From IMG/VR virus record IMGVR_UViG_3300020183_000012, positions 64,001 to 128,000 of that record: DNA of 64,000 nt; one strand, written 5' to 3'. Under the pieces are notes generated by a model. It made no database searches and was not told the origin of the DNA. It was given only the letters and a program-made list of their open reading frames with translations. The position numbers and the translations under genes were made by a program. The DNA comes from a virus. Shown here piece after piece: positions 34,526 through 63,947 of this stretch (position 1 is the first letter of the stretch; each line of letters opens with the position of its first letter).

Positions 34526-35566
34526 ATGAACTGGTTGAAATTTGCAAGGGACGAGCGAGATAATTTTTCGGGAAAGAAACCCAGGGTGCTTTCGGGAAAG
34601 AAACCCAGGGTGCTTATGGTGTCTCTTCCGGACATGTGGGGCATTACGGACGAAGATCTGAAGCCTTTGCGTGAGATTGCCCAGGTGGATTGGGTTCAGA
34701 CGAAGCACATTACGGAGCGTGAGCTTGGTAAGCGTTGCGAGGGCTACGACTATCTGATGTTGAACATGGATCCGATGCCTTTTCCGGACCCGAACAAGTT
34801 GGACAAGCTTACGGAGGTATTTTATAAATTTCCGGGTGTTCGGGGTTTGAAGGGGATTAATGTTGACATGACTGACGCGGACTTCTTTAGTCCTGGTATT
34901 GCGAAGCGGCTTGGTATTGTGCTTCAGGATTCTCCTGACACTACGACAGAAAGTGTTGCTGAATCAGCACTTACGGAGATACTTTTGCATGCCAGGAACC
35001 GTCATCTTGCGTATGTTGACGTGGTGAAGGATCGTGACGTGGAGTGCAGGAAGTCTCTTGACCTGAAGGGCAAGGTTGCAGGGGTGATAGGTAAGGGACA
35101 CATAGGTTCACGCGTGGGTTCATTCCTTGAGGCTTTGGGGATGCGTGTTATGTACAACGATGTGGATCCGAAGCGTGGCGGCGGGGATTCTCTGGAGGAC
35201 ATATTCAGGGAGGCTTGCGTGGTGAGCATCCACGTACCGTGCCACCAGCCTCATACGAACAAGAGCAATGAGGGTCTTATAGGGGAGAAGCTTTTGGGTA
35301 TGTGTAAGGACCTGATACTGGTGAATCTTGCAACGGACATTATTGTTGACATTGGGGCGTTGAAGGATGCTCTGGACGGGGGCAGGATTCGCGGTTACTC
35401 TGTGGAGAGTGGCAGGCATGAGACCGAAAGTCTGCGTCGTTACGAGAACGTCCACATATCTCCGTGTTCATACGATTCAGATGAGTCGGTTGCGAACGTG
35501 AAGAGGGTGTGGATCCGCAACATGATCTCTGCGGTACGGGGTTCTCCCGAGAACGTTTGGATTTAA
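34526..35566 (+). CDS. D-isomer-specific 2-hydroxyacid dehydrogenase family NAD(P)-binding protein
   Basis: TTESVAE, LKGKVAGVIGKGHIG, SIHVP, ENVHISP; N-terminal 24-bp duplication (SGKKPRVL x2). Confidence 0.85.
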   Translation: MNWLKFARDERDNFSGKKPRVLSGKKPRVLMVSLPDMWGITDEDLKPLREIAQVDWVQTKHITERELGKRCEGYDYLMLNMDPMPFPDPNKLDKLTEVFYKFPGVRGLKGINVDMTDADFFSPGIAKRLGIVLQDSPDTTTESVAESALTEILLHARNRHLAYVDVVKDRDVECRKSLDLKGKVAGVIGKGHIGSRVGSFLEALGMRVMYNDVDPKRGGGDSLEDIFREACVVSIHVPCHQPHTNKSNEGLIGEKLLGMCKDLILVNLATDIIVDIGALKDALDGGRIRGYSVESGRHETESLRRYENVHISPCSYDSDESVANVKRVWIRNMISAVRGSPENVWI

Positions 35567-35667
35567 TTTTCGGGCGTAGGGGATACCTTAGTGGGAGGTG
35601 GTATAGGTATAATATTATGAACTGGTTGAAAGAGGAACTTTACGAAGCGGTGGGGTAAAATGTAATC

Positions 35668-36606
35668 GTGAGAGACATCAATCGCAACATGGCGGCAAGA
35701 ACGGTGGGCAACTGGTGGAAGCGTGCGGGCATCGTAGACAATCCATCCAAGGAGTTGAGCGATGTATTTGATCCGGGCTCCACCCGCATGAGCGATTATG
35801 TCGTTGAGATGATCAACAGGGGTCTTGCACAGATACAGGAATATCTTGATTCCACCCATCCCGGGGTCAAGATCACGCATCATGAAGTCATTGGAGCAGC
35901 AGTAACTTACCAATACACCCCCAAGAGCGACATAGACACCACCGTTTTCATCAACATGCCTAAAACAGATCGGAGGTTTTGGGTCATCAACGATTGGATT
36001 ATAGAAAATCTTGACAAAACTATGTATTTTAAGGAGAGGCCAATCCAGTTCAAGATCGCACCAGATTCGTTAGTGGGGACCCAGAGTGCCAATGCTGATG
36101 CCATTTACGACCCCACCGAAAGGCGCTTTGTGAAGAAGCCCTCTCTGATAGGTGCCTCAGGTAGTTATCGCAAATTAGTTGAGTTAGGAAGTTCTGAGGA
36201 ACGCAAAGAGTACCGTCGCCTTGAGGAGGAGTTGCGAGGGATGGCAAGGTCCTGGGCAAAGGTGGGCAGACAGGCACTTGAATCAGGTAAGCCAAGCGAG
36301 TTAGGGAAGTGGCTTTGGCCCCAAGCTCGTGAGATAGCTTCAGCAATTAAGCGGATAAGAAGTTTGAGAGGCGAGGCCTACAGCCAGCCTGCAGCTCCTG
36401 GAAGAATAAGCCAAAACTGGGGTCGGGGTAACATACTATTCAAAATGATGGAGAGGGATGGATACATTGAGCTGTTTTCACTCATCAAAAAAACCTTGGG
36501 TGATCGGCAAGTTTTACACCCTGAAAATCTTGCAGCATCTGTAGAAATGGCTGAAAAAATAATGAATCAGCGTGTTGGTTTCGATCCAACCACCGATCCA
36601 GCATAG
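35668..36606 (+). CDS. Pol-beta-type nucleotidyltransferase-like protein
   Basis: IGAAVTYQYTPKSDIDT motif; C-terminal GNILFKMMERDGYI. Confidence 0.65.
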   Translation: MRDINRNMAARTVGNWWKRAGIVDNPSKELSDVFDPGSTRMSDYVVEMINRGLAQIQEYLDSTHPGVKITHHEVIGAAVTYQYTPKSDIDTTVFINMPKTDRRFWVINDWIIENLDKTMYFKERPIQFKIAPDSLVGTQSANADAIYDPTERRFVKKPSLIGASGSYRKLVELGSSEERKEYRRLEEELRGMARSWAKVGRQALESGKPSELGKWLWPQAREIASAIKRIRSLRGEAYSQPAAPGRISQNWGRGNILFKMMERDGYIELFSLIKKTLGDRQVLHPENLAASVEMAEKIMNQRVGFDPTTDPA

Positions 36607-36764
36607 TCTTGACAGCAGGGTGTTTGGATTTAATTTTCGGGCGTAGGGGATACCTTAGTGGGAGGTTATGGCATTATTATTTTCGGGCGTGGGGGATACC
36701 TTAGTGGGAGTTTATGATATTATTATTTATGTAAAGTCGATAGAAGCCTAAAGGAGCACGCACT

Positions 36765-37535: not shown

Positions 37536-38107
37536 GGTGTTTTGGTAATAAAATTTTGGGGCAAGGAGAAGCCTGGTATATTTTCCCTGTTCTGCCCGTA
37601 GGGCAGTTGTGGCGGATCCGTTCCCTCTAGTGATGAAAAGCCCCTTATGGGGATACCTTAGCGGCTGAGTGGGCATCCGATGGAGTCCGATGGCACAAAC
37701 CCAATAGGTATTATTGAAGCCCGAAAAATATTTATACGGTAAGAGATACATCTCAGAAAGTGGTGTATTAGCGCATATGGGTAACATAGAGAATGGGTGT
37801 GGCGATAGAAGTTATAATAATCAAGGGGGGATCCACCGAAACGGGTGGCTGAAAAGGCAATGGATGGGAGACACAAATGATTTAATGACAAAGCAGCTTA
37901 TAAGTTATGGTATTGGAATAGGATTAATTATATCTGGATTCTTTGGATCTTTCAGACGAATCAAGTAAAATTTATGGTTTAACTTGCCCCAAAAATATAA
38001 ATTTATAAAATTCATGGGGGAGATCCCTAAAAGGGTCGGCTTAGGATATTGGGAATTAGCAATCAAAAAAAAGGTTATTATAATCTATAATATTAAATAT
38101 TAGTATC

Positions 38108-38557
38108 ATGAATTGGTATAAGAGCGCAGGAAAATGGACAAAAGGAGACGGAGACTGCTTTAAAGCGGCATTAAATCTTCTTTTAGTGAGGAATTTTCCT
38201 AAAGACAACGGAGATTTGCTGGTTCACGCATTGGTGCACGGTCGCGGAAGTGCATACGGGCATCGATTTCCTCATGCTTGGGTTGAGACAAAAGAGGGCA
38301 TTGCAATGGACCACTCCAGTGGTAAGAGTATAGATATACCAAAAGAAATATATTACGCCCTTGGAAACATAAATCCAGACGAAAAGGGAAGCTACATGTC
38401 GTACACGCTTGCAGACGTAAGAAAGAAAATTACCGAGCACAAGCACTACGGACCATGGGATCTAGATACAGAACTGCAGAGAACTCCAGAAGACTGGAAT
38501 GAACCAGAGGAAGAGACGGATGATGATGAAGACTGGGATGACGATGAGGATGAATAA
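38108..38557 (+). CDS. hypothetical protein, transglutaminase/papain-like C..HAW.E motif
   Basis: GDC...LVHA...HAWVE; MNWYKSA N-terminus. Confidence 0.65.
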   Translation: MNWYKSAGKWTKGDGDCFKAALNLLLVRNFPKDNGDLLVHALVHGRGSAYGHRFPHAWVETKEGIAMDHSSGKSIDIPKEIYYALGNINPDEKGSYMSYTLADVRKKITEHKHYGPWDLDTELQRTPEDWNEPEEETDDDEDWDDDEDE

Positions 38558-39108
38558 TGAATTGGTATAAAAATGCATCTAATTACAGCGAAATGAAAGA
38601 TTTTATGGAAGAATTTCAGTGGTACAGGGACCGTGGTGTCGCATCCGGACTCACGGACAAAGAAATAGAAAAAATATGGACAGAATCTCCAGTGGGATAC
38701 ACCGATCCAGTTGATCTAGACAGAATAGGGAATACATATACTCCAGAAGTTACAGGAGAATCCGAAGAGGAAAGAATTAATAAATTTATAGAATGGGCAA
38801 AGAAAGAGAATAGAGAAGACAGTGCGGAGAGCGAATGGGGAGAGAAAAGACTAAGAGATCCAGAAGGATATCTTCGCAATCTTTTAGTGGGTATAGGCAG
38901 AGGTGACTATCCTGCAGTAAACATCGTTGAAGCTGAGGGTCTGGGAAGCTTTATTGTTGGAGGTAGAACTCGCGCTGCGGCTGCCCGCGCACTAGACATG
39001 CCTCTGAGGACCAGAAAAATAAAAATGCCCTGGAAGGAAAATGAGAGCACCAGAGAGGTAAAGGATTTATTTTATAAATTTGATGAACAGGAAAGTAAGG
39101 ACGCTTAA
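38557..39108 (+). CDS. ParB/Srx-like domain protein
   Basis: YPAVNIV...IVGGRTRAAAARAL; MNWYKNAS N-terminus. Confidence 0.55.
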   Translation: MNWYKNASNYSEMKDFMEEFQWYRDRGVASGLTDKEIEKIWTESPVGYTDPVDLDRIGNTYTPEVTGESEEERINKFIEWAKKENREDSAESEWGEKRLRDPEGYLRNLLVGIGRGDYPAVNIVEAEGLGSFIVGGRTRAAAARALDMPLRTRKIKMPWKENESTREVKDLFYKFDEQESKDA

Positions 39109-39121
39109 GGGCAGAATCTCA

Positions 39122-41311: not shown

Positions 41312-41401
41312 TAGAGGATAAAGCATCGATTAAATAATATAGCATAAAACATAGGATCTAATATGATTATGTTCTAATATAGAATAGAAAAAGGAGATTT
41401 C

Positions 41402-41566
41402 ATGCAATATAAATTATCAAAAGATCAGTGGTTGGAAATAGGGGAAAAAGCTGGATGGATAAAAGAAGCAAAAAAGAATAAAGGGCAGTGTTGGGAGGGG
41501 TACAAAATGGTTGGAATGAAAAATAAAAATGGTAAAAAAGTGCCAAACTGCGTGCCTAAAAATTAA
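41402..41566 (+). CDS. 54-aa protein with CWxGY...VPNCVP motif (not in ORF track)
   Basis: MQYKLSKDQWLEIGEKAGWIKEAKKNKGQCWEGYKMVGMKNKNGKKVPNCVPKN; AAGGAG SD. Confidence 0.8.
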   Translation: MQYKLSKDQWLEIGEKAGWIKEAKKNKGQCWEGYKMVGMKNKNGKKVPNCVPKN

Positions 41567-41592
41567 TCATATAATTTGTATCATGGTACTTT

Positions 41593-42504: not shown

Positions 42505-42566
42505 TCTTTTAATTGAAGGATGATTCACTATAAAATAATTGAAAATAAAAATTCAGGAGTACACAA

Positions 42567-42858: not shown

Positions 42859-43257
42859 ATGAAATTTAATCTAAAAAAATTTAATCTCAATAAAAATAGG
42901 CAAAAAATAAGTCATCATCTCAAGCAGGCATCAAGCTGGTCTGGAAAATTCAATTACGAATTTGATGATTTAGAAATAAAAAACCCACCATGTAAATGTA
43001 GTGGAGAGGCTGAAATTTCGTATCAAGCTAGTTATGACAGTGGAACATGGTATGATCCGCCAGAATCAGATATAAAAATAAAAGTAAATATAACAGCGGT
43101 TAAATGCATTGAGGAATCAGGAAGAGAAGAGCCCATGGATCCTTATATTATGGATAATATAAAAGAACAGCTTGAAAAAGATGAAAATATTAAGGAGATG
43201 GCCTTTAATCAAAAAGGCATGGACGAAGACGAACCCGATTACGATATAGAATATTAA
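42859..43257 (+). CDS. hypothetical protein
   Basis: MKFNLKKF...LKQAS leader, acidic body. Confidence 0.7.
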   Translation: MKFNLKKFNLNKNRQKISHHLKQASSWSGKFNYEFDDLEIKNPPCKCSGEAEISYQASYDSGTWYDPPESDIKIKVNITAVKCIEESGREEPMDPYIMDNIKEQLEKDENIKEMAFNQKGMDEDEPDYDIEY

Positions 43258-45049: not shown

Positions 45050-45274
45050 ATGCATTGGTACAAAAAATGTTCCCAAAAAGAAGATAAAAAGACCGTTTCT
45101 GATCTTGCAAAAGATCTAATGAAAAGGTTGTTAGCATATGGAATGACCCCTGAAGAAATAGAAAGAGCAATAAAATCTGGATACCTTGAAAGAATTATTG
45201 GTAAAAAACCACCATTATCAAATACATCTGATTCAGGATGGGATGATCCATCATTTTGGAAAGACAACAATTAA
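45050..45274 (+). CDS. hypothetical protein
   Basis: MHWYKKCSQ N-terminus. Confidence 0.65.
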   Translation: MHWYKKCSQKEDKKTVSDLAKDLMKRLLAYGMTPEEIERAIKSGYLERIIGKKPPLSNTSDSGWDDPSFWKDNN

Positions 45275-45275
45275 T

Positions 45276-45947
45276 ATGAACTGGAAAAAAAGAGCGCAAT
45301 TTTCTGGACCAGCAATTGGTGACATTGATGACATTTTGGGAAACATACATCAGACTAAAATGTATGAAGAAGATGCCAAACAAGGTACAATTAGGGGACG
45401 TAGGCCTTCCGAAGATTCTGTACCAACAGTGCAAACAGAGCCTGAATATTTATTGACCCAAAAAAGAGAGAAAGATCTTGAGAATAAAGAAACAAAAATA
45501 TCAAGATATTATTCTCCTCACATTTCAGAACAAGTTAATCATTCTGTAAATAGCGCTATTGATTCGATATTAAAACTAAGCAAAGCATTTAAACTCGGCA
45601 AGGCCATTAATGAATTAATGGAAAATAAAAATATTATAGATAAAATAACTTTGCATTCCTACAAGATGTTAAGAGCAAAGCTTGTTTCAGGTGTTCTTAG
45701 CAATATTAATAAAAAGAATGAATGGGCAGATAGAGAAACAGCTATAATATCTAATATAAGAGTAAAAGAATTATTATCTGTTTACGAGAATGAAGAAAAA
45801 AATATACTAGGAGTTTTTAAAGAAGTAGTAGAAGAAATTTCTTTTAAGACAAAAAAAATTGCTGAATATTCAGCGATATTTGAAATGATAGTAAAAGAAT
45901 TTTTAAACAGTTTGAAATATAATAGTTTAGATTATTCTGAAAGTTAA
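45276..45947 (+). CDS. hypothetical protein
   Basis: start reassigned to MNWKKRAQ. Confidence 0.7.
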   Translation: MNWKKRAQFSGPAIGDIDDILGNIHQTKMYEEDAKQGTIRGRRPSEDSVPTVQTEPEYLLTQKREKDLENKETKISRYYSPHISEQVNHSVNSAIDSILKLSKAFKLGKAINELMENKNIIDKITLHSYKMLRAKLVSGVLSNINKKNEWADRETAIISNIRVKELLSVYENEEKNILGVFKEVVEEISFKTKKIAEYSAIFEMIVKEFLNSLKYNSLDYSES

Positions 45948-49041: not shown

Positions 49042-50637
49042 ATGAAAAATTGGTATAAACACATTAAAATATCTGAAACAAATACTGAAGAAGACAAACA
49101 CATAACTCTTACTTCAAATGAAGAAAATATTTTTAACATAATAAGATCTGCACGTAGCAAATACGCGAGTGATGTATCTCTTAGGGTTGCTGGAGGATGG
49201 GTTAGGGACAGGTTGCTAGGCAATATGTCTGATGACATAGATATAGCAGTTAGCGGAGGAAATGGCATAGTAATAGCAGAAGCAGTAAGAAAATTTGATC
49301 TTGATATGACTGGCGGAAAAAGAACAGATGATCCTTATTCTGTAAGTCTAGAAAAATCAAATAAAGGCTTAAAGGAAAAAAGTGCAGGCTTGCAGGTTGG
49401 TGGTATCAATATACTCGGTATGAAAATTGAATTTGTTCCAATGAGAACAGAAGTGTATTCTGAAGAAAGTAGAATTCCCTTAATAAGAGCAACTGACAGC
49501 CCATCTGAAGACGCAAAAAGAAGAGATCTTACAATAAATTCTCTATACTACAATCTAGATACAAGAGAAGTAGAAGATTACACTGGGGGATTTGATGATC
49601 TTAAAAGCAAGGTACTGAAAACACCAATAAGCCCACTAGAGACATTAATAGAAGATCCGCTGAGAGCGCTTAGGGCGATAAGATTTGTATCTAAAATGCC
49701 TGGTTTTAAACTTGATGATTCTTTGCTTTCTGCTCTATCAATGAAAGAATTACACGATGCATACAGAAAAAAAGTTTCACCAGAAAGAGCAAAAGTAGAG
49801 ATAGAAAAAATAATAAAGGGAGAAAGACCGTCAGATTCTATTAGATTGCTTTTGCAAAGCGGACTTTATTTACCCGTTTTTTCAAGTGAAAGACTTGACT
49901 CATTTAAGCCAATAACCATGGATCAAAACACCAAGCACCATAAATTAAACTTACTTAACCACACAATTTTAGTTGTTGAAAATCTTGATAGGATCATGAG
50001 AGAAAATGGATTCTCTGATAGAGAAAGATATCTTGCAGTACTTGCTGCTCTTTTTCATGATTTTGGCAAAATGGATCCTTCAATAGAAAAACCAAGTAAA
50101 AAAGACCCATCTCAATCAAGCTATCATGGACATGAAAATGTTTCAGCAGAGATTGCCGAAGAAATACTTAAAAGACTTGGTTTTGGCGCGGACAGAAATA
50201 TAGTAAAGTCAATAGTAGAGAGCCACATGATACCGCACTCTTTTATTGATTTGAGCAACAAGTCAATCGGAAATTTTATTAGAAGATTTGAAAGTTTGCC
50301 TATTGATGATGAAATAAAAGAGTCTCTTTGGAAACTTGTGTTTGTCCATTCAATTGCAGATACTATGGGCAAGGGAAAAATAGATGAAAAAGAACTTGAA
50401 GAAATAGAGCAAAAGAAAAAATCTATAAGTAAAATAGAAGAGTTCTTAAAAGAAAGAGAAAAAGTGGGCAAAAAACCTATTTTAAATGGCAATCAAATAA
50501 TGAAATTGTTTCCAATGAAAGATCCTAAAAGTCGATACATAGCAGATATGCAAAAAACACTTTTAGAAGCACAGGACAATGGATCTGTAACTAACGAAGA
50601 GCAAGCAAAAGAATATTTACTTGAATTGTTTAATTAA
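49042..50637 (+). CDS. cca: CCA tRNA nucleotidyltransferase with HD domain
   Basis: VAGGWVRDRLLG..SDDIDI, RTEVY..SR, DAKRRDLTINS, EDPLRALRAIRF, HDFGK. Confidence 0.92.
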   Translation: MKNWYKHIKISETNTEEDKHITLTSNEENIFNIIRSARSKYASDVSLRVAGGWVRDRLLGNMSDDIDIAVSGGNGIVIAEAVRKFDLDMTGGKRTDDPYSVSLEKSNKGLKEKSAGLQVGGINILGMKIEFVPMRTEVYSEESRIPLIRATDSPSEDAKRRDLTINSLYYNLDTREVEDYTGGFDDLKSKVLKTPISPLETLIEDPLRALRAIRFVSKMPGFKLDDSLLSALSMKELHDAYRKKVSPERAKVEIEKIIKGERPSDSIRLLLQSGLYLPVFSSERLDSFKPITMDQNTKHHKLNLLNHTILVVENLDRIMRENGFSDRERYLAVLAALFHDFGKMDPSIEKPSKKDPSQSSYHGHENVSAEIAEEILKRLGFGADRNIVKSIVESHMIPHSFIDLSNKSIGNFIRRFESLPIDDEIKESLWKLVFVHSIADTMGKGKIDEKELEEIEQKKKSISKIEEFLKEREKVGKKPILNGNQIMKLFPMKDPKSRYIADMQKTLLEAQDNGSVTNEEQAKEYLLELFN

Positions 50638-51455: not shown

Positions 51456-51974
51456 ATGAAAAATTGGTTTTTGAAGTCAGCAGAATCTGGAGATGAAAAA
51501 TTAAAGTCTTTTGTTGAAAGCGTAGAGTTTAAGACAACAAAAAAGAAGCCACTTAATTATGTTTTTTATCAAATAATTAATGGAGACGTAAGTAAAATGC
51601 CAGCTTTGAGCTATGGAGTAAACGACAAAGATCAGAATCTTATAGTTACTCAATTTCCGGACGAAGGTGAGGAAGAAACACAAAATATGGCAAAGAATGG
51701 AGATATAATCGTATCCGGGCCTGCGCATGAAAAATATGTAGTAAAACAAGAAAAATTTAAAAAGAACTATTCTGGAGAGATTGGTGAAAGCGTTTCTCCT
51801 GAGCAGTCTACCAGGATGGCTGCAAAGTATACAGGACAAGAAGAAATAATGTTTACTGCTTCATGGGGAGAAAAAATGAGGCTTAAACCTGGAGACTACA
51901 TAATAAAAGAAGATGAAAACAAATACTATAGAGTTAGACGTAAAATGTTTGAGTTGACATACGAGCCAGTGTAA
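51456..51974 (+). CDS. PGDYG-like domain protein
   Basis: GDIIVSGPAHEKY...ASWGE.M.LKPGDY...FELTY. Confidence 0.65.
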   Translation: MKNWFLKSAESGDEKLKSFVESVEFKTTKKKPLNYVFYQIINGDVSKMPALSYGVNDKDQNLIVTQFPDEGEEETQNMAKNGDIIVSGPAHEKYVVKQEKFKKNYSGEIGESVSPEQSTRMAAKYTGQEEIMFTASWGEKMRLKPGDYIIKEDENKYYRVRRKMFELTYEPV

Positions 51975-51990: not shown

Positions 51991-52623
51991 ATGAAAAAAC
52001 CATTCAATCTACATAGATTTGCGTCAAATAAAATACCAGCGACAAAAGCCAGTATTCTTGTTGACAATTTGAGAAACACGTATGTCGCTAAAATAATTAA
52101 AAATAAAAAAATAGATAAAAATCTATATATAGATTTAAATAAAAAAAATTTATATGTAATAGCTGAACTTAATAGTATATTTAATCATTCTAGGTATAAA
52201 AATTTAAGCATGATGGTTTATTTACTTCAATCATCGATGCCGATTCAAAATATTCCAGTTGGAATAATTATTGATTATTTGTTACACAATCCAATGGCAC
52301 TATTAGAAGCAATAGGAAATGCATATTCATACAAAAACTTTACACATCCAGATCGGTTTACAGCACCTTATACGAATAATATTAAAACAAAAAATAAAAC
52401 CGACTTTAAAAATATATTAGAAATTTTACCATTAGATTGGATTAATTTAGTACTGTTAAAAGGCACAAACATAATAGAAGTTGTAAAAATTATGTGTGAA
52501 ATAAATTTTGATTTTTCAAAAGTCAATAAAGAATCTATTAGGGCATTAAGATTGAACAAAAGAATTTTAAATAGTATCGATGATTGTCCTAATCTTAAAG
52601 GTTTTTTAGCCAGTAAAAAGTAA
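51991..52623 (+). CDS. hypothetical protein
   Basis: MKKPFNLHRFAS leader. Confidence 0.65.
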   Translation: MKKPFNLHRFASNKIPATKASILVDNLRNTYVAKIIKNKKIDKNLYIDLNKKNLYVIAELNSIFNHSRYKNLSMMVYLLQSSMPIQNIPVGIIIDYLLHNPMALLEAIGNAYSYKNFTHPDRFTAPYTNNIKTKNKTDFKNILEILPLDWINLVLLKGTNIIEVVKIMCEINFDFSKVNKESIRALRLNKRILNSIDDCPNLKGFLASKK

Positions 52624-54439: not shown

Positions 54440-55120
54440 TTAACTTGAAATGTTTTTTCTTGTCTTTTGATTTATATAAGAATAAACCTCTAATATATCG
54501 TCATGGGCTGTAGTTATGTGCTCAAGCTCCCAGCCTTCTATTTTATCAGAATTTGATATTTTTTCTTTCATTTCTTCAAGCATTGGTATCATTTGATGTA
54601 TTTTTTCCATCATCATACCTTGGTTCTGATTAAAGCAATCATCACATGATGAAGAAGCTTTTTTTGTTGCAGGATTAGACTTAATTATATTTATAGTGTC
54701 GGTATAGTTTTTATCGTATCTCTGTTTTATAAATGCATTTAAATTATTAACTTGTTGAGGAGAGGCGATTCCAGATATTGCATTATTAAAAATTTCTATC
54801 ATTTGACCGTTTATAAACTCAAGTTGCCCTCCAATGTTGTTTGGCAAATTGTTCATTGGAAGCGCTTCAAATATACCTTTATTAGCTTTTCCTAATGAGG
54901 TGATCATTGCAGCAATATCTTTAGCCCCAGCAATTCCAGAAGATGCAATCATATTTTTAAGTTGACTGGAATAGGCATTTAGTGTTTGCGAAACTTGCTG
55001 ATTATTTGATTGATTTGCACCTTGTGCATTTTGGGTATTTTGTTCGTACTGTGGTGCTGCGCCAGGAATTACTGCACCGAATCCTTGATTTTGCTGCGAT
55101 GACTTAAACCAATTATGCAT
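54440..55120 (-). CDS. hypothetical protein
   Basis: MHNWFKSSQ N-terminus, Q/N-rich. Confidence 0.7.
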   Translation of the reverse strand: MHNWFKSSQQNQGFGAVIPGAAPQYEQNTQNAQGANQSNNQQVSQTLNAYSSQLKNMIASSGIAGAKDIAAMITSLGKANKGIFEALPMNNLPNNIGGQLEFINGQMIEIFNNAISGIASPQQVNNLNAFIKQRYDKNYTDTINIIKSNPATKKASSSCDDCFNQNQGMMMEKIHQMIPMLEEMKEKISNSDKIEGWELEHITTAHDDILEVYSYINQKTRKNISS

Positions 55121-55558: not shown

Positions 55559-56974
55559 ATGACACCAGAGTTATATGTACCAATTTCTTGTTTGCTAGAC
55601 AAAAAAATATCCGATGAGATAAACACTAAACTTGAGATTGTATATAAATTTGCACAAGACAACATGATATCTTTTAGTGAAGTTCCAGAATATATATCTG
55701 AAATTTTAAAAAATAAAAAATATGCATCAGCTGGAATAAAATCAAGTCTTTCTAAATTACCTGATTTTATTTTCAAATTAGCTGATTTAAAAAACGATTC
55801 TTATTTCATAAAAACAGCTCAAGAAAAAGAACAAGAAGCTTCTAATGAATCTGATGGATCTGATTCCTGGACTAGAAGCTGGTGGGCAAGCGTTCTTGGT
55901 TTTATACCAGGAGTTGGCGGAGTAATAAGTTTAGTAAATATATATAAGTATAGTTATAAGGCATGCAAAAATGAAGGAGCTTTAAGTTGGAGCTGTGTAG
56001 AATTTGTCTTTGATATACTTGTTATATTACTTGATGCAGTGACAATAGCTGGAATTATGGGATCCGTTGGGACTGCCGGAGCATCAGGTGTTGGTGCAGC
56101 TGCAGCAATAGCAGCAGGAACAGTTATAAAGGCCATGAGACCAGTATTAAAAGTTATTATGCTTGGTGAAAAAATAACTAGGCCAATAAGGTTAGCGCTA
56201 ACTCAGTTTGGAAAAGGATTTATTGCAATTTTAGAAGCAGTAGGAATAAAATCTTCAAAAGTTATTGCGTGGTTTGCTGCAAAAAAATCTACTCCAGGAG
56301 TTTTAGGTAGAATATTTACAAAGCTAGAAAATATGTTTATATCATTTAAGGCAATAACAGTAAACATAATAAATAAATTGAAAAATGCAATAAAGGCAGA
56401 GAAAGATCTTTTAGATCCTTTTGCTTCTGCAACAGCAACAGGTCGGGGAAGGACGGCACGAAGGGCTGCCTATGCTGCAATAGTAAGCAGGGGCCAGTTG
56501 GGTTCAAGACAAATACTTCAGTGGTGTTCTTTCTTTAGACAAGGAAGTGGATGGATGTATACGTTTAATTTAAATGCATTAAGGTCTTTTGGAATATTAG
56601 GAAAAGCCGCAGAGTCACTTACAAATTGGTTTATGTCAGAAGGCGCTACCGACATAGAAAAAAGCGTTTCAGAAATGGAAAGCGAAGTTATGCAAAATCC
56701 TAATGCAATTGTTAGTGGTCAGCAAATGAAAGCAAGAATTAAATTAATAGTTGAAGAAAACTCTGAAAAACTAGTAGCAAGACTAAGAACTGAAGGCAAA
56801 AGCGAAGCAGAAATAGCCAAGATTAAGGAGGGATATGCAAGGTATATGGCCGAAATGCTTGAGGGTATCGCTGTTTCTGGAAGCGAGACTTCCGATGAAT
56901 ATACAGTACAAATGCCAGGTTATGGAAAAGATGCAACATTTGATAAAATGTCGATTCCAATCGGTCCTGGCTAA
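55559..56974 (+). CDS. hypothetical protein with Gly/Ala-rich hydrophobic region
   Basis: LGFIPGVGG and ILLDAVTIAGIMGSVGTAGASGVGAAAAIAAG; internal FIKTAQ. Confidence 0.7.
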   Translation: MTPELYVPISCLLDKKISDEINTKLEIVYKFAQDNMISFSEVPEYISEILKNKKYASAGIKSSLSKLPDFIFKLADLKNDSYFIKTAQEKEQEASNESDGSDSWTRSWWASVLGFIPGVGGVISLVNIYKYSYKACKNEGALSWSCVEFVFDILVILLDAVTIAGIMGSVGTAGASGVGAAAAIAAGTVIKAMRPVLKVIMLGEKITRPIRLALTQFGKGFIAILEAVGIKSSKVIAWFAAKKSTPGVLGRIFTKLENMFISFKAITVNIINKLKNAIKAEKDLLDPFASATATGRGRTARRAAYAAIVSRGQLGSRQILQWCSFFRQGSGWMYTFNLNALRSFGILGKAAESLTNWFMSEGATDIEKSVSEMESEVMQNPNAIVSGQQMKARIKLIVEENSEKLVARLRTEGKSEAEIAKIKEGYARYMAEMLEGIAVSGSETSDEYTVQMPGYGKDATFDKMSIPIGPG

Positions 56975-57193: not shown

Positions 57194-57198
57194 TTTTA

Positions 57199-60180
57199 TT
57201 ACCTTGATATTTTATACCAGTTTGTGTTTGTATTTAAGCTTGCTTTTTTCATTTCTTTGCCTATTTGCTCTACTTTCTGTTCCAGTTTTTCATCTATTTC
57301 TTCAAGTTTTGCCTGAAGTTCATTTTTTCTTTTGTCATTTTCAGTAACCTCAAATCGACCTTCAGATATTCTTTCTATTTGTTCTTCATCTAGCCTTTGT
57401 ATCAACTCCATTATCATAATTTTTTGCTTGACTATTTCATAAATATCTTCATCAGCTGTGCCTTTTGCTATCATATAATAAACGTTTACGTCTTCTTTAC
57501 TATTAATTCTAAAAAATCTTCCTCTGGCCTGCTCGTCTTTTGCTGGACTCCAATCATAATCATTAAATATTACATCGGTTAGTATGTTTGGAAGATCTAT
57601 TCCAGTTCCACCAGCTGCTATATTTATGACAATTGCAAAATATTTACTATTTTCTGACTTAAAATCTTGAATTATAATGTCTCTATCTGCTTTTTCTTGG
57701 TTGCCTCTAATCTGAGCGACATTTTTGTTCATGGGTGCTAGCAACTTTGTTAGACCATCAGTAATAATATCAGCAGATTCGTTAAACGACGTAAATATTG
57801 CAACCTTTTTGCCTTGATTTATGAAAAATTTTGCAAATTCGAGTGTTTTTGGTGCTTTTGCGGAAGCAAGTTCGACTCTAATTGCACTTTGTTCATTAAG
57901 GGTACTCCTTCCTCGGTACGAACTCATGCGGGCGTTTATCTTAGCCATAAGCGTAGCCTTATCTAGATCAACATTTTTTTCTCCAACTGCAATATTTGGA
58001 AGATTTTCTTCCATCATTTTTTTAGTTCTTTGAATATATATTCTTTGAAGTATCAAAATTTGCCTTAATTTGTCTGCGTTGGCAAATTTTTCAGATGGAT
58101 TTTTTGTTTTTGGATCAAAATTGCCTTTAAAGCGACCGTGATCGAGTTTTCCAAGAGGATGATTTACAGCTCTAAGCTGATTATAGAGATCTACTGGCTT
58201 ATTCGCTATAATTGTTGCAGACAAACCCCATACGTATGGTATGTGCTGCGTAATATCTTGACAATTAAAGGTTGTTTTGTTCTTTTTGTGGTCTCCAGCT
58301 GGGTCTCTTGAGGACGGAGAGCCATTTTTTATGGTGTGACATTCATCAAGGATACAAAGAGCTATCTTGCCATCCATTGCTTGTTTTTTTAGAAATTCGG
58401 TAACTTCTTTTGACCTACTGGAAACAGAAAGATCGTTATATGGAAGAACTTTCCACATGGCTGACTCATTATTAAAAGAGTTGGAAACTTGATTTTCAGG
58501 TAGCCCTGTAATGTCTATTACATTTTTTGTGTATTGACTAACTACAGAGGGAAGAGTAAATACAAGACACTTTTTTCTAAATGAAGAACATACATTCGGA
58601 TCGGTTAAATTTGCGTCAAATGGTATGTTGTTCTCTCTCATGAGTCTTAATTGTGCGGCCATAATAGATTGAACAGTCTTGCCTGTTCCTGTTTCGTCGC
58701 CAAGAAGAGCGGAAGACCTGGAGTAAAGGAACTGGATACCGTGAACCTGCAGATCTTTAAGGGTAAACTGTTCTCCAGTTTTTATTTTGCTTATGTTTGA
58801 TTCAAATTTTTCAAGTGCTGATCTAAATTGTTCCTTATTGTCAAAGCCATCTACGCTTCCCTCAAGTCTCTCTTGCTTTATTATGCCTTTTGAAACCAGA
58901 GAGGATACAATCCTCTTGAGTTCAGACGCATCAAACCCTCTACTCTCACAACATTGTATGAATCTTGCATAATCATTAAGGGAACCCCTGGTTGGTCTTT
59001 GGTATTTAAATCTTGTATCAGAGCTTTCACTCATATTGAGATACGTATGTATATCTGGATCAGTGTTGTTTATGTCACTAGTTGAATTCACAAAACAAAA
59101 TCTAAGAGATTCATTGATAAATTTTCTTAATTCTTCTGGTTGAGATCTACTTAGATAGAAAATGCTTATAAGCCAGTTGTTATTTGTATCTGCAGATATG
59201 TCTTTGCAGGTTATTGACGTTCTTGAGTTTCCGTCTTCAAATATGGTACTTGCAGAAGATGCTTGATCAAAAGGATTGCGATCAAAACCAATTTTATCTG
59301 ATTGATCTCCAAGCTGTTTTAATGTTTCTTTTGACGGAGAATACAAAATCCAGCATCTTTTGGCAGCATCAAAAGTTCTTCTGGATTTTACATTTCGTAT
59401 AACATTAACCATTTCTGAACTATACTCAAAGTAAATTTCATAATTATTGCCATCTCTTATTATTTTTACTTTTTTCTTGTCTGTATTCTTACTTTCAAAT
59501 ACACCTTCTCTTGTATCAGCTGCATCACTTGTTGTTTTTTGTGTTGAGACTGCAATATTTGCGTTTTCTGTATTGTAGTCAAGCGATTTTAGATAATTGA
59601 AGACTATGCCCTCAACAAGTGGATGTATTTCTATTATGTCTGGTTGGCTTCTTGGATAAAAAAGCTTCCAAACTTGAATTTTGTCACCTGAAAAGTAGGA
59701 AGAAAAATCTTGTCTTTGCTCAGGAGGCAAAGACATAATTTTTTCTGATATTTCTTTTATGATTTTTCTAATTTTGACTGGGTCTAGAGACGGAATTATG
59801 TATGTACTTCTTCCATATCCTCCAGTACCAATTTTTTTAATAGATTTTGTTTTAGAAAGTTCGTTTATATCTTTAAATTCTGGATTTGTTTCAGAAAACT
59901 GGTCATTAATTCTACTTTCTATTTGATCTAAATTTTCATTTTTTAGTTGAGTATTTTTATATCTTTTTAATATGTATAGTATGCCATATATTTCATCCCA
60001 AGTCAATGGATCACTTATTTGCATTCTATATACAGACCTAAGAAGCGGATTATCATAATCAAATTTATTAAATCCTGAATTGTCATATGTTGTTGGAGCT
60101 CCTTTTCCAAACATATTTTTTACAATTTCTATTATTTTAGAAACTTCTGCACTACTGTGTTTTGATTTATTGATAGACAT
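57199..60180 (-). CDS. SNF2-family helicase (HARP-like upstream domain)
   Basis: LGDETGTGKT, ILDECH, LSAT, GTGIDL, DWSP...QARGRFFRI. Confidence 0.9.
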   Translation of the reverse strand: MSINKSKHSSAEVSKIIEIVKNMFGKGAPTTYDNSGFNKFDYDNPLLRSVYRMQISDPLTWDEIYGILYILKRYKNTQLKNENLDQIESRINDQFSETNPEFKDINELSKTKSIKKIGTGGYGRSTYIIPSLDPVKIRKIIKEISEKIMSLPPEQRQDFSSYFSGDKIQVWKLFYPRSQPDIIEIHPLVEGIVFNYLKSLDYNTENANIAVSTQKTTSDAADTREGVFESKNTDKKKVKIIRDGNNYEIYFEYSSEMVNVIRNVKSRRTFDAAKRCWILYSPSKETLKQLGDQSDKIGFDRNPFDQASSASTIFEDGNSRTSITCKDISADTNNNWLISIFYLSRSQPEELRKFINESLRFCFVNSTSDINNTDPDIHTYLNMSESSDTRFKYQRPTRGSLNDYARFIQCCESRGFDASELKRIVSSLVSKGIIKQERLEGSVDGFDNKEQFRSALEKFESNISKIKTGEQFTLKDLQVHGIQFLYSRSSALLGDETGTGKTVQSIMAAQLRLMRENNIPFDANLTDPNVCSSFRKKCLVFTLPSVVSQYTKNVIDITGLPENQVSNSFNNESAMWKVLPYNDLSVSSRSKEVTEFLKKQAMDGKIALCILDECHTIKNGSPSSRDPAGDHKKNKTTFNCQDITQHIPYVWGLSATIIANKPVDLYNQLRAVNHPLGKLDHGRFKGNFDPKTKNPSEKFANADKLRQILILQRIYIQRTKKMMEENLPNIAVGEKNVDLDKATLMAKINARMSSYRGRSTLNEQSAIRVELASAKAPKTLEFAKFFINQGKKVAIFTSFNESADIITDGLTKLLAPMNKNVAQIRGNQEKADRDIIIQDFKSENSKYFAIVINIAAGGTGIDLPNILTDVIFNDYDWSPAKDEQARGRFFRINSKEDVNVYYMIAKGTADEDIYEIVKQKIMIMELIQRLDEEQIERISEGRFEVTENDKRKNELQAKLEEIDEKLEQKVEQIGKEMKKASLNTNTNWYKISR

Positions 60181-60252
60181 TTTAAAAACAGTATTTATTG
60201 CTAGTATACAGGTTTATTTAAAAAAAACAAGAACTATCCTTTAGAGAAACTC

Positions 60253-60591
60253 ATGAACTTCAGCAATAACAAAGATTGTCACTTCTCATTTCATTACTCC
60301 ATTAATACTATTGGAGATCCCAATCATTTAGATGAGTCTTTTATAGATATAAAAATATCTAAAATTGATTTTTCGCATAAAAATCACGTTTCTTTTTCAA
60401 GAAAAATAAGTATTGGGCCATTTACTATGATAGAACAGGCCTATGAAGAGGGAACTATAGAAAATTTGATAAAATTAGCAATAGACAAATTTATGAATTC
60501 TGAAGAGTCTTTAAAAATGGTAAAATGCAACTTAGTTGAAATAATAAAAAATGGATTATATAAATATATTCATGACGAGGGTCTAATATGA
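60253..60591 (+). CDS. hypothetical protein
   Basis: 112-aa ORF. Confidence 0.55.
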   Translation: MNFSNNKDCHFSFHYSINTIGDPNHLDESFIDIKISKIDFSHKNHVSFSRKISIGPFTMIEQAYEEGTIENLIKLAIDKFMNSEESLKMVKCNLVEIIKNGLYKYIHDEGLI

Positions 60592-63038
60592 GCCACATAA
60601 CTGTAACCTTATCGAATACAACATATGATATAAATGAACAGTTTATAGAAAATGCAAAATCATGGTTTAATAGCAATGAAAAAAACATTCCAAATGTGTT
60701 TGGGAAAGTGACTATGGGTATATTTGTTGGAAACATGCCACAGGGATCTTCGAAAGATCATGAATGTGATTTTGTAAGATCAAAAATAGAAGGACTTAAA
60801 AAACCATTTAACACTTTAGGGTGTGAATATTATGTAGATAAAGATAAAAATCAAAAATATGTACCAAGAAATCAAAATCCTTACTTTTTTGCTCCATTTG
60901 TAATAGAAGGAGGCAATAATTTTTCTTTTGACCAATTAGATCAGGGCTTATACGGCGCTTTGGCTTACAGCGGTAATTTTAGAAGAATTTCATCTGGAGA
61001 TGTGCAAAGTCACTTGCTATATACTGTGCAAGTTCACGAAAATGTAGAAATGATTACCCCTAAAAGACCAAATAAAAGCACCATATTTAATTTTAGTGGC
61101 ATGGCAAGCAGCCTGCCTTTTATACAACAAGCTAATAGAAAGGAAAGTATAGGGATGAAAAAAATATCAATATCTGAAGATCTTTATAAATCAAGGGGAG
61201 AAGAAATTGCAGGTGGACTTGACAGAATAGACAGAAATAAAAGAACAGGAAAAGAAAAAAGTACCTTTATTCCAGGTATTGCCATGCTATTTAGCAAGAC
61301 AATCAGAGATCTTCCTCAAAAGGTAATAAACCCGATACTTGAAAGGTTCAATCAGAAGATGATGGAAGCTGGCATAACAACTATTGAAGCTCTTGATATG
61401 CCATTAATAGCGTTTCTTGGTAAAAATGATATATGGAACCTGGATGGAAGGGCAATTATTCCATTAGAAATAGAAAAAAAATCAAAAAAAGGTATTCAAG
61501 AAATTGAAATTACATATTTAGATCTTTCAACTATGCAAGTTGAAAAAAATGAAAGCCAAGAATTAAAAGACAGAGTTGAAAGAATTATAATAGAGCGTCA
61601 GGAAATGAAGCAGCTCAGAATTAATGCTTTGATAAGAGATAGAAATGCTTTTATAGAAAAAATGCAAACTTCTTCTAGGCCATCGGCGGGTGGATTCCCT
61701 GCAATTATTTTCATGATGAATAAACTTGACTCTTTGCTTAATTCTAGAGCATCTACATTAAAAATGCAGATAGCCTCAATGACAAAAAAATCAAGTAGTT
61801 TTGAGCAAAATCCATTGTTGTTAGAAATAGAGCAACAGTCAGAAGAGGAAATGACAAAACCTTTTGGCGAATCTGCTTTTTATACACATCCAGCTGACTA
61901 TTTAAAATCAATATTAAGAGAAATGCACTACAAAGGCAAACTAGAACAAATAATGAAAATGCTTGAAAGCGGAGAACTTCAAAGGAAGTATAATCCAGAG
62001 AACGATCCAAGATTAAATGCTGTTTTTGATGCTCTTATGGAGTTTGGAAGACAATTAAGAGAAAGAAAAGAAGAAAAGAACAGAAAAGAAGATGAATCAA
62101 AACAGGAAAGAAAAGAAAGATTTGATACTGGTGCTTTAGAACTTCCAGTATTAAGAGAAATACGAAAAATAGAAGAAATGAGTGTTGCAGACATGCCAAT
62201 TGAGACTTCTGGCATATCTCCAGAGCTTTACAAATCAGAGGGCTCAAAAATGGTTGCTCCCTCAAGAGCTATGGAATATATAAGAATTAATCTTAGAGAG
62301 GTAGAGACAACAAAAGATAGACTTGCAGGCATAAGAATGATACTGGTGAGATTGAATGAAGACAAAAACATTAATGCTAGATATTTTAGAACGACAAATG
62401 GACAGAGAGATATACAAAAGATAAAATCCATGTTTGCTCAACTTCATGGATTTATAACAAGATATGTAAATTCTATGTATAAGGATGGAAAATTAGATAA
62501 AGCAAAGATAGGCTCTTCGGCAGATCCCATTGCAAACCTAAATATAGCGGAATATCTTTTGGTTTTGAATACAAAAGTAGGAGAATATATTAGGCAACTA
62601 AATGAAAACTCTGAAAATAGAACTGCCTCAAACTCTTATCCCATAAAATTTGCTCAAGATGCTGCAGCCGCCCCGCCACCACCAGCTGCGCCTCCTTTAG
62701 GAGGTATGCCAGGTATGCCAGGAGCAGGAGCAGGATCAAAAGCAGGAGACTTAAGAGGTCCTGATGAGTCGAAAATAAATGAAGAGATACATGATGATGC
62801 AAGTGAAATAGAAAAATTAAGAAAACATTTTGATAGTGCATATAAATCAGGTCACTCAATAGAAGATTCAGTGATATTGGCTATACAGGGTTCTGGATCA
62901 AGAAGAGCCCCTAGCCAAATAGATGTTGCAATGGTGCCAGATGAGGATTATCCAGGTAGGGAGGCCCCTTTTGTCAGGGGAGTTTTTGGAATCGATCTTG
63001 GTCCAGTTCAGGATCAGCAGCCGCAAGTGCCACAGTAA
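60588..63038 (+). CDS. large hypothetical protein, coiled-coil with Pro-rich linker
   Basis: 816-aa ORF; RTAS..IKFAQ before the poly-Pro segment. Confidence 0.75.
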   Translation: MSHITVTLSNTTYDINEQFIENAKSWFNSNEKNIPNVFGKVTMGIFVGNMPQGSSKDHECDFVRSKIEGLKKPFNTLGCEYYVDKDKNQKYVPRNQNPYFFAPFVIEGGNNFSFDQLDQGLYGALAYSGNFRRISSGDVQSHLLYTVQVHENVEMITPKRPNKSTIFNFSGMASSLPFIQQANRKESIGMKKISISEDLYKSRGEEIAGGLDRIDRNKRTGKEKSTFIPGIAMLFSKTIRDLPQKVINPILERFNQKMMEAGITTIEALDMPLIAFLGKNDIWNLDGRAIIPLEIEKKSKKGIQEIEITYLDLSTMQVEKNESQELKDRVERIIIERQEMKQLRINALIRDRNAFIEKMQTSSRPSAGGFPAIIFMMNKLDSLLNSRASTLKMQIASMTKKSSSFEQNPLLLEIEQQSEEEMTKPFGESAFYTHPADYLKSILREMHYKGKLEQIMKMLESGELQRKYNPENDPRLNAVFDALMEFGRQLRERKEEKNRKEDESKQERKERFDTGALELPVLREIRKIEEMSVADMPIETSGISPELYKSEGSKMVAPSRAMEYIRINLREVETTKDRLAGIRMILVRLNEDKNINARYFRTTNGQRDIQKIKSMFAQLHGFITRYVNSMYKDGKLDKAKIGSSADPIANLNIAEYLLVLNTKVGEYIRQLNENSENRTASNSYPIKFAQDAAAAPPPPAAPPLGGMPGMPGAGAGSKAGDLRGPDESKINEEIHDDASEIEKLRKHFDSAYKSGHSIEDSVILAIQGSGSRRAPSQIDVAMVPDEDYPGREAPFVRGVFGIDLGPVQDQQPQVPQ

Positions 63039-63042
63039 TAAA

Positions 63043-63681
63043 ATGCAAGAATATAGATTCCAATTTCAAAAAATACCCTATGGTTTTAATGAACTAGAAG
63101 GTCTTTTTTCAGAAAATGCAGTAAAACTACATCATTTAAAGCACGAATATGGATATTTTACAAAACTAAACAAACTTGTTGAAAAAAATGTTATATTTAA
63201 AAAAAGTTCACTTGAAGAAATTGTTAGATATTTTAATCAGAATAAAAATGATGAAGAAAATGTCAGCATAAAAAATAATGCTTGTGGACTGTATAACCAT
63301 CAAATATGGTGGAAAATGCTTACATCAAAAAAGAAGCATAAAAAGCCAAATTCAGATATTAAATCTATAATAGAAAAAAACTTTAACTCATTTGAAGAGT
63401 TTGAAGAAAAATTTAAGGATTTGTCAAAAAATCTGTTTGGTTCTGGATGGGTTTGGATGGTATGTAAAAATGGAAAAATGTCTTTAGCTTCGTGTCAAAA
63501 TCAAAATAATCCAATTTCTGAAGGACTGGGATATCCGTTATTGGGAATAGATGTATGGGAACATGCATTTTATGTAGATTATTTAAATAGAAAAAAAGAA
63601 TATGTAAACAAATTTTTTGAATATATAAATTGGGACGAAATAACAAATAGATACTTTGAATCAGAAAAAAGTGCATTATGA
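63043..63681 (+). CDS. Fe/Mn superoxide dismutase
   Basis: HHLKH, NHQIWW, FGSGWVW, DVWEHAFY. Confidence 0.92.
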   Translation: MQEYRFQFQKIPYGFNELEGLFSENAVKLHHLKHEYGYFTKLNKLVEKNVIFKKSSLEEIVRYFNQNKNDEENVSIKNNACGLYNHQIWWKMLTSKKKHKKPNSDIKSIIEKNFNSFEEFEEKFKDLSKNLFGSGWVWMVCKNGKMSLASCQNQNNPISEGLGYPLLGIDVWEHAFYVDYLNRKKEYVNKFFEYINWDEITNRYFESEKSAL

Positions 63682-63947
63682 ACTGGTATAAGAATCAACT
63701 AAATAAAATTGCAGATGAATGTTTTTCGATAAGCATACCATCAAGTGCAAGAATAAAAAAAGATATAGATTCCATATTGGAAACTGAAATCACTATTAAA
63801 ATTGCGTCAAAAATAAGATCTATAATAAAAACAGCATCGAATGCTAAAAAGAATAAAGAAAAACACTTTTCTAAAATAGATGATATCGTTGACCCATCAA
63901 TAAAAGATCAGGTCAAGGGCATAGCAAGGTCTTATCTTGGAATTTAA
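63678..63947 (+). CDS. hypothetical protein
   Basis: MNWYKNQLNKIA; internal KIAS/KTAS. Confidence 0.65.
   Translation: MNWYKNQLNKIADECFSISIPSSARIKKDIDSILETEITIKIASKIRSIIKTASNAKKNKEKHFSKIDDIVDPSIKDQVKGIARSYLGI

Follow-up and report, generated by a model that had tools for sequence, protein, structure and literature searches.

An eight-residue tag shared by unrelated proteins of a huge-phage lineage, a candidate capsid-loading signal

The window analysed here, a 64,000-nt stretch covering bases 64,001–128,000 of a single 146,719-bp virus contig (IMG/VR record IMGVR_UViG_3300020183_000012), encodes many otherwise unrelated proteins that carry one short peptide, hereafter the tag, with the consensus M-N-W-Y-K-x-(A/S)-(Q/S) and usually forming the first eight residues; its broader form is N-W-(Y/F/L)-K-x-(A/S)-(Q/S). 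Judged by sequence comparison, the second half of the tag matches the hydrophobic-K-x-A-(S/Q/T) sites that partition a giant head protein of the same phage lineage, and we regard as evenly poised the proposition that the tag loads proteins into the capsid and is also a protease site. The contig, with an estimated completeness of 36% (CheckV-type estimate) and no direct terminal repeat at its ends, is a fragment of a huge phage.

A search of all six frames of the window with the regular expression [NH]W[YFLWK]K returned 11 matches, all at 34,529–63,681 and none in positions 1–34,500. Nine of these follow a start codon with zero or one residue between, one (at 35710) stands seven residues past an ATG, and one is the C-terminus of an SNF2 helicase. 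At the DNA level, the pattern AAYTGGNNNAAR was found 15 times in the window compared with 4.5 ± 2.1 times in 100 shuffles, and 10 of the 15 matches are the tags; since none of the shuffles reached 15 and the tags are placed at start codons, a chance origin is excluded. These searches recovered the nine N-terminal tags that a preliminary description of the window had placed at 34526, 38108, 38557, 45050, 45276, 49042, 51456, 55120 (minus strand) and 63678, together with the NWYKISR that it had seen at the C-terminus of the SNF2 helicase (57202–57222, minus strand), and the glycosyl- and methyltransferases of the window were likewise without the tag, as it had stated. Its tenth N-terminal example, at 35668, was only partly upheld: GNWWKRAG is present but is not strictly N-terminal, as it lies seven residues past the nearest ATG, and the nucleotidyltransferase (NTase) label given to that protein found no backing in Pfam or PHROG, where no family matched. 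GWIKEA at 41402, offered as a related site, proved to be a weak match and was not counted.

Extending the motif search to the whole proteome of the 147-kb contig, as the preliminary description had proposed, gave about 25 tagged open reading frames (ORFs) among 215. Outside the window there are eight more starts of N-W-x-K type (for example MNWYKTAS, MFFNWYKTAQ, MKSNWYKKSG, MKINWYKTSQ and MTWYKSAQ) and five leaders of a weaker F-N-L type, so the tag is not limited to the 34.5–64 kb part of the window in which it had been described. The weaker form, F-N-L-x-K-x-A-S, has L or F in place of W, and is represented on the contig by MFRKFNLFKFSA, MGKFNFKKYSS, MKFNLKKQAQ, MKKPFNLHRFAS and MKNLFKLSQ. 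The two forms swap between orthologues, the protein at 42859 having ..HHLKQAS where its orthologues on two other contigs start MNWYKSAR, with YKSAR aligned to LKQAS; by this comparison, the N-W-x-K and F-N-L forms are interchangeable. Conservation ends after position 8 and is best in the N-W-Y part. In addition, hydrophobic-K-x-A-Q occurs nine times in the contig against 1.6 expected, including IKTAQ in the protein at 55559 and IKFAQ in the protein at 60588. Literature searches on the letters of the motif and on its topic found no published description of it among the papers listed, the topic matching only T4, SPN3US and unrelated work.

Where the preliminary description had left a choice between conservation of the peptide and conservation of the DNA, the evidence came down on the side of the peptide. 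In a set of 105 tags, neither synonymous codon is exclusive at N, Y, K, Q or A, with codon use for K, Y and Q in line with the background, and Shine-Dalgarno-like words precede tagged genes (8 of 23) about as often as untagged ones (61 of 159). The motif is also kept at places other than gene starts. Among 32 SNF2 homologues, down to 30% identity, 21 retain [NST]W[YFIL] in their last 25 residues compared with 11 of 1217 control windows, and nine of the 32 also start with a leader of the I-F-N-L-L-K-x-A-Q type. The fused CCA-adding enzymes of L034 and L013 consist of an N-domain, D-x-x-IKTAQ, the CCA enzyme, S-N-W-Y-(K/R)-K.. and a C-domain, and the IKTAQ junction occupies the place of the MKNWYKHIKIS leader in the stand-alone CCA enzyme at 49042. 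The C-terminal conservation in SNF2 homologues and the use of the motif at CCA junctions thus indicated selection on a peptide that works at either end and at junctions, and the SNF2 C-terminal tag is, of the sequence arguments for peptide-level selection, the strongest.

We then considered how widely the tag is distributed. A degenerate DNA pattern for MNWYKxAQ found 44 stretches on 28 IMG/VR contigs, many of which held several, with 94 distinct tag-starting ORFs around the matches. When this pattern was run against 596 Gb of bacterial and archaeal genomes (one genome for each of 185,579 species), it matched 12 stretches, spread over 11 contigs. Two of the contigs are small and AT-rich and have 5 and 3 tagged ORFs; we take them for phage pieces binned into metagenome-assembled genomes. 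Two more are single ambiguous cases, and the other seven are frames of ≤26 codons, which we attribute to chance. In that cellular set there was no clear cellular gene with the MNWYKxAQ form, indicating a tag without a cellular model. A strict 15-nt start, ATGAAYTGGTAYAAR, was counted 1–11 times per record in 15 viral records, none of which contained the reversed control; ten of these records are 9–42% complete (43–123 kb) and five are 98–100% complete (296–548 kb). On this distribution, the tag is a trait of one lineage of huge phages of about 0.3–0.55 Mb.

The proteins that bear the tag are diverse. With the first 15 residues masked, 119 tagged proteins (94 from other contigs and 25 from this genome) fell into 90 clusters, and Pfam matched 23 of the 94, the families being GNAT (five), PcfJ (three), ART-PolyVal (two), AAA_33 kinases (two), Tad6, SLT, methyltransferase, DUF5661, cREC_REC, HATPase_c, PolyA_pol, G6PD and 2-hydroxyacid dehydrogenase. 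Tagged proteins of this genome comprise a 2-hydroxyacid dehydrogenase, the CCA enzyme, a PGDYG protein, a LysM/endolysin-like protein, a Cys-His protein and three tandem paralogues of about 500 residues (L003:12323-16802, genome 52323-56805), which are 14–27% identical, have no Pfam or PHROG family, and are best conserved over the tag itself. On other contigs, tagged genes stand in arrays of 4–11. The Pfam domains of tagged proteins begin 11–24 residues from the N-terminus, residues 1–14 in the structure model of the Cys-His protein (38108) have a predicted local distance difference test score (pLDDT) below 50, and alignments of the CCA enzyme to its homologues in GenBank phages do not begin before query residue 21. 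Together, the late domain starts, the unstructured first residues and the late alignment mark the tag as an appendage.

A link to the phage head emerged from a complete 461-kb genome, G001, which has in common with this contig a syntenic block (sigma factor, HNH, ribonucleotide reductase, dUTPase and a 605-residue protein) at 23–57% identity. PHROG profiles place the large terminase, portal and major head protein in G001, where the gene order runs portal, two small ORFs, an 1834-residue protein, a 195-residue ORF and the major head protein. The first ~190 residues of the 1834-residue protein match phrog_18299, “head maturation protease”, a profile matched by all four aligned orthologues (best E 2.9e-20), and H102 and S153 (in G-T-S-M-G) are invariant. 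Orthologues of this giant head protein, which has about 1,850 residues in the lineage, were found in all four of the other near-complete tag-bearing genomes and on 10 of the 28 tag-bearing contigs. Moreover, when five further large genomes were chosen only for the head protein, three of them held strict MNWYK starts (4, 1 and 1, with the control at 0).

The resemblance between the tag and the head protein begins at the N-terminus of the latter, M-A-(F/I/M)-(Y/K)-K-x-A-(T/I)-F-S. Among 120 homologues, lysine is at position 5 (K5) in 91 and alanine at position 7 (A7) in 71, the same register as in M-N-W-Y-K-x-A-Q. Since K5 and A7 are combined in only six of the 645 ORFs of G001, namely four MNWYK tags, MGWYKYAK and the head protein, the shared register is no effect of composition. 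About 30 residues in, just before the protease domain, stands an invariant IKTAS, and over residues 25–62 the pattern [IVML]K.A[STGQ] was found in 92 of the 120 homologues, compared with 10.4 on average and 37 at most in control windows. Alignment of 67 full-length head proteins revealed conserved sites at about residue 34 (50 of 67), 899 (43 of 67, VKEAQ/IKTAQ) and 1173 (52 of 67), as well as weaker sites near 52, 622 and 1749; the N-W-Y part was not found at the internal sites. Across G001, hydrophobic-KTA[QST] occurs nine times against 1.5 expected, with seven of the nine inside the head module.

Separately, intein and homing-endonuclease domains (PF14528, PF14890, PF05203) were present in many head-protein homologues (P0019–P0021, P0048, P0049, P0051 and others), and the same domain families also in some SNF2 homologues (P0146, P0160, P0167). 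The G001 portal (L068:11380-13677) has a C-terminal DUF559/REase-like domain at residues 638–704 (E 2.6e-9).

Conserved short sites in and around a protease-bearing head protein, as in self-processing prohead proteases such as SPN3US gp245, and the capsid-targeting sequence (CTS) of T4 together suggested to us a two-part signal, in which N-W-Y would be the docking part, while the head protease would recognise, and probably cut, hydrophobic-K-x-A-(Q/S/T). The tag would in this way mirror both the head protein's N-terminus (M-x-hydrophobic-x-K-x-A) and its conserved hydrophobic-K-x-A-(S/Q/T) sites. During procapsid building it would dock cargo on the protease/scaffold machinery, so that the cargo becomes enclosed; the protease would then cut hydrophobic-K-x-A-(Q/S/T) after the alanine, freeing N-terminally tagged cargo and splitting fused cargo at its junctions, and the cargo would stay in the head and be delivered together with the DNA to the next host. 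It is within procapsids that head-maturation proteases are active, and herpesvirus assemblins, which are related, cleave between Ala and Ser. A signal serving as both docking motif and cut site would explain the N-terminal, junction and C-terminal positions of the tag, its virus-only spread, its restriction to one lineage and the overlap with polyvalent-type cargo. The T4-like head-loading tag that the preliminary description had proposed is partly supported: the tag is portable and, as found here, peptide-level and virus-only, while the loading stays a reading toward which the results point and which none of them contradicts. We would go further only tentatively, to a possible but doubtful version in which these phages have a general system of protein delivery, the protease domain of the giant head protein is the receptor, and cargo bearing a substrate-like copy of its N-terminus enters the procapsid and is released by the cut. 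If that version were true, eight added codons or a fusion behind a junction site would make any enzyme an injected protein, and the injected set would include counter-defence, tRNA-repair and even central-metabolism enzymes.

Several observations weigh against a tag that loads the capsid and is cut by the head protease. Standing at the extreme C-terminus, the SNF2 tag cannot act as a leader to be removed, and the residue before the alanine of the tag varies freely, which is unusual if it is adjacent to a cut. Injection would be an odd fate for the metabolic enzymes (G6PD, 2-hydroxyacid dehydrogenase). AAC (54% vs 23%) and GCA (68% vs 34%) are over-used in the tag, so that some RNA-level constraint at the gene start coexists with selection on the peptide. 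This contig has no recognisable head gene, and the head link rests on relatives that are 23–57% identical in shared genes. The protease assignment of the head protein comes from PHROG profiles only, with no match in Pfam or in a PDB sequence search, and the AlphaFold2 model of the protease domain was poor (pLDDT 54), its fold search being filled by the helical tail of the model. Two of the five genomes picked blindly for the head protein, one of them 97% complete, are without a strict MNWYK start, and a tagged ORF was found in only 9 of 69 head-protein neighbourhoods, a search of low power because the cargo arrays lie elsewhere. Finally, the search gave no cultured relative: matches to the CCA enzyme in 50,697 GenBank phage records were all below 60% identity, and ≤33% among the matches listed.

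We weighed loading with cleavage against five other explanations. Were the tag a processing signal only, that is, a site cut by the phage's own or another protease at which proteins are matured, activated or split in the cytoplasm with no capsid loading, it would account for the motifs at the domain junctions of fused CCA enzymes, the conserved sites partitioning the giant head protein, and the internal hydrophobic-K-x-A-Q that precedes low-complexity linkers in the proteins at 55559 and 60588. We consider this unlikely, as shortening a free N-terminus by seven residues would not in itself serve an obvious purpose, at the C-terminal SNF2 tags there is nothing to cut away, and the procapsid interior is where head-maturation proteases act; furthermore, N-W-Y, the best-conserved part, is missing from the internal sites of the head protein and must therefore do more than specify a cut. 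A motif that works N-terminally, C-terminally and internally, like a short linear binding motif, could instead dock proteins on some other phage hub (a chaperone, a replication or assembly compartment, an export route), the head-protein likeness then meaning that the same hub is used, and both the tagging of metabolic enzymes and a virus-only motif, which implies a viral reader, would fit. To this explanation we give a low probability: no candidate hub was found, the only tagged family tested (38108) being present in two of the five complete genomes, and the one non-cargo protein that shares the register is a head-assembly protein.

A translation-start enhancer or leaderless-mRNA start, with the peptide as by-product, would agree with the over-use of AAC at codon 2 and of GCA for alanine, and with the TATAAT that abuts the ATG at 34526 and 35617, untagged genes behind the same 17-nt element having a leader with AAGGAG. 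It is hardly credible given that neither synonymous codon is fixed at N, Y, K, Q or A, that position 3 varies among aromatic and hydrophobic residues, that the tag is kept at C-termini and internal junctions and on a gene overlapping the preceding stop codon (38557), and that Shine-Dalgarno-like words are equally frequent before tagged and untagged genes. Alternatively, a shared 5′ end (promoter plus first codons) might spread as a hitch-hiking recombination cassette and leave the peptide functionless, as the arrays of 4–11 tagged genes and an 83-nt repeat that moved a promoter-like element and five codons, leaving an orphan leader, would allow; this we think very unlikely, because the DNA differs at synonymous sites across contigs with the peptide kept, upstream DNA is not common to most tagged genes of this genome, and the tag also stands at C-termini and junctions. 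Variant leaders such as MKKPFNLHRFAS at 51991 may resemble the leader of ribosomal protein L27 in letters and spacing, raising the idea of a leader cut by a host protease, as by Prp in the staphylococcal phage 80alpha, whose capsid and scaffold proteins bear the L27 leader. Other phages do put the same Prp motif on non-homologous proteins (PMC5744158, in the part of that account consulted). Since the phage lineage to which the tag is tied has a predicted protease of its own, and since the genomes searched, one for each of 185,579 species, contain no clear cellular gene with MNWYKxAQ that would make it a copy of a host protein, the host-protease explanation is scarcely plausible. The RNA-level and host-protease explanations are those that the data oppose most directly.

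Several candidates for reader or head proteins were rejected. The Cys-His protein at 38108, considered as a universal tag reader or protease, is present in only two of the five complete tag-bearing genomes and therefore counts as one more cargo. In its family C17, H56 and D68 are invariant; its model has a pLDDT of 79.7, and the best fold matches, LapG (Z 5.9) and C8orf32 (Z 5.4), are weak. A tag-like peptide is kept at the aligned position in 14 of 15 homologues, six of which start MNW.., the rest having variants such as TDWYKTSQ or MTFKSAQ, or residues upstream; the fifteenth is without its N-terminus. The family's copy in genome G002 (L064, G002:C1:28296-28613, minus strand) has one TGA and one TAA inside the match and is either a broken gene or a sign of unusual reading. 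Two proteins considered as capsid (L002:15570-16706) and portal (L002:13836-15488) were assigned by an atlas look-up to CBM96-like and unnamed clusters, and the window protein at 60588–63038 showed no homology to the giant head protein. PF03420 (Peptidase_S77, T4-type gp21) was found in none of the five complete tag-bearing genomes, but likewise in none of 14 control genomes. As a separate observation, a staphylococcal-nuclease homologue (PF00565, 8.3e-18) at L004:1101-1496 (minus strand, genome 61098-61496) begins with MYEYKIAS; apart from the tags, no other start in this genome combines K5 and A7.

The tagged and motif-bearing features of the window are collected in Table 1.

Table 1. Coordinates of tagged and motif-bearing features in the window
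Feature	Position	Strand	Tag, motif and family evidence
2-hydroxyacid dehydrogenase homologue	34526..35566	+	MNWLKFAR, tag 34529-34549; PF02826 1.3e-20
Orphan 13-codon leader MNWLKEELYEAVG	35617..35658	+	Copy of promoter-like cassette and first five codons of 34526
Unknown-family protein	35668..36606	+	GNWWKRAG at 35710-35730; 7 residues past ATG 35689, 14 past GTG 35668
Small Cys-His protein, weak papain/transglutaminase-like fold	38108..38557	+	MNWYKSAG
183-residue protein, unknown family	38557..39108	+	MNWYKNAS; orthologue L014:5491-6024 tagged MNWYKRAQ
Variant-leader protein MKFNLKKFNLNK..HHLKQAS	42859..43257	+	Site 42919-42933; orthologues L014, L021 start MNWYKSAR
74-residue protein	45050..45274	+	MHWYKKCS
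223-residue protein	45276..45947	+	MNWKKRAQ
CCA-adding/poly(A) polymerase-family enzyme	49042..50637	+	Leader MKNWYKHIKIS; PF01743, PF01966
PGDYG-domain protein	51456..51974	+	Leader MKNWFLKSAE; tagged orthologues L006 (MKNWFLKSAE), L022/L026 (MNWYKIAQ)
Variant-leader protein MKKPFNLHRFAS	51991..52623	+	
Tagged protein	54440..55120	-	MHNWFKSSQ; L006 orthologue starts MLNWFKYSQ
471-residue protein	55559..56974	+	Internal YKFAQ (55643-55657), IKTAQ (55808-55822)
SNF2-family helicase	57199..60180	-	Ends NWYKISR (57202-57222); PF00176, PF00271
816-residue protein	60588..63038	+	Internal IKFAQ (62643-62657), then Ala/Pro/Gly-rich low-complexity linker
89-residue protein	63678..63947	+	MNWYKNQL; internal IKIAS, IKTAS; L006 orthologue starts MNWYKQQL

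The L014 orthologue of the dehydrogenase at 34526 is 78% identical and starts MNWLKWAK. Within the dehydrogenase gene, a perfect 24-nt tandem duplication at window positions 34566–34613 encodes SGKKPRVL twice, and the L014 orthologue has a single diverged copy. The orphan leader at 35617–35658, correctly described before as duplicating the start of this gene together with its upstream DNA, lies in an 83-nt direct repeat (34458–34540 and 35549–35631) with 86% identity overall, the copies being identical from the GGGATACC motif through the fifth codon. A 17-nt element, GGGATACCTTAGTGGGA, occurs in six copies against 0.01 expected (window positions 34443, 34489, 35580, 36647, 36693 and 39971, plus strand), each a few bases 5′ of a −10-like TATAAT or TATTAT, before tagged (34526, 35617) and untagged (36765, 40030) genes alike. 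From its sequence and position it is probably a phage-specific promoter or operator, and the −10-like box abutting the ATG at 34526 and at 35617 suggests leaderless mRNAs.

The G+C content is about 46–58% in window positions 1–36 kb and 26–35% from 42 kb on, and about 28–42% in the remaining contig. As the tag is present on both sides of this boundary, the gene at 34526 lying in 52% G+C, the boundary is not a chimeric join made in assembly. Seven tRNA genes (Leu-taa, Met, Glu, Lys, Arg-tct, Gln and Arg-cct) lie at window positions 6813–23639, all within the high-G+C half, and ORF shapes at genome positions 37.9–40.5 kb suggest further tRNA genes.

If the tag does load the head, eight N-terminal residues would be enough to tell which proteins each phage in a large, uncultivated group (0.3–0.55 Mb) carries into the cell, offering a sequence-only route to pre-made counter-defence and host-takeover proteins, such as a Thoeris-inhibitor family, ADP-ribosyltransferases, acetyltransferases, kinases and CCA-adding enzymes, and large capsids could be filled with foreign proteins by means of a natural tag of minimal size. 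Through the link to the head protein, what was an anonymous motif becomes something that can be tested, a peptide paired with a protease domain and predicted cut sites. New in this work are the variant leader, the forms at C-termini and junctions, the tie to one lineage and the resemblance to the head protease protein.

Among known systems, the cargo-loading peptides of encapsulins are short C- or N-terminal sequences that dock unrelated enzymes inside an HK97-fold shell; use at either terminus would fit the tag, but encapsulins are cellular compartments with no protease and with other sequences. In phage 80alpha, Prp cleaves L27, CP and SP close to their N-termini, between F and A (Kizziah et al. 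2017, PMC5744158), and according to the portion of that paper drawn on here, non-homologous phage proteins carry, as with the tag, a short N-terminal leader, there cut a few residues in and before Ala. The 80alpha leader, however, imitates a ribosomal protein of the host and is removed by one of the host's enzymes, whereas the MNWYKxAQ form has no cellular counterpart. Phages have also been proposed to package polyvalent-protein effectors in the capsid and to deliver them with the DNA (Iyer et al. 2017). By what that source sets out, the overlap in cargo domains covers ART, SNF2 ATPase, methylase and lysozyme-like domains, with ART-PolyVal named by Pfam on two tagged proteins; polyvalent proteins fuse 2–15 domains in one polypeptide, whereas the tagged proteins are mostly single-domain products of separate genes, with the tag at the junction where they are fused.

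The prohead protease gp245 of SPN3US cuts itself and several sites within single propeptides, and many head and ejection proteins of SPN3US and phiKZ are processed at one short motif (PMC10052503, as excerpted), which is like the processing that we propose for the tag. The SPN3US propeptides, as presented there, are mostly of 111–254 residues, with two of 20–24, and that presentation gives no single peptide shared by them, whereas here there is one eight-residue tag; also unlike SPN3US, the predicted protease of this lineage is the first domain of a protein of about 1,850 residues. In T4, a short shared N-terminal peptide brings unrelated internal proteins into the scaffolding core, and staphylococcal nuclease is among the foreign proteins that the CTS has packed into T4 heads (PMC3012670, in the sections relied on). 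Like the tag, the T4 CTS is a short N-terminal peptide on otherwise unrelated, fast-changing proteins of one phage. The two differ in sequence, and the tag has a far larger set of cargo (about 25 proteins from 36% of a single genome, and ≥90 families overall), which extends to metabolic and tRNA-repair enzymes. In contrast to the CTS, the tag is also found at C-termini and domain junctions, and it mirrors the N-terminus of the predicted protease-bearing head protein itself.

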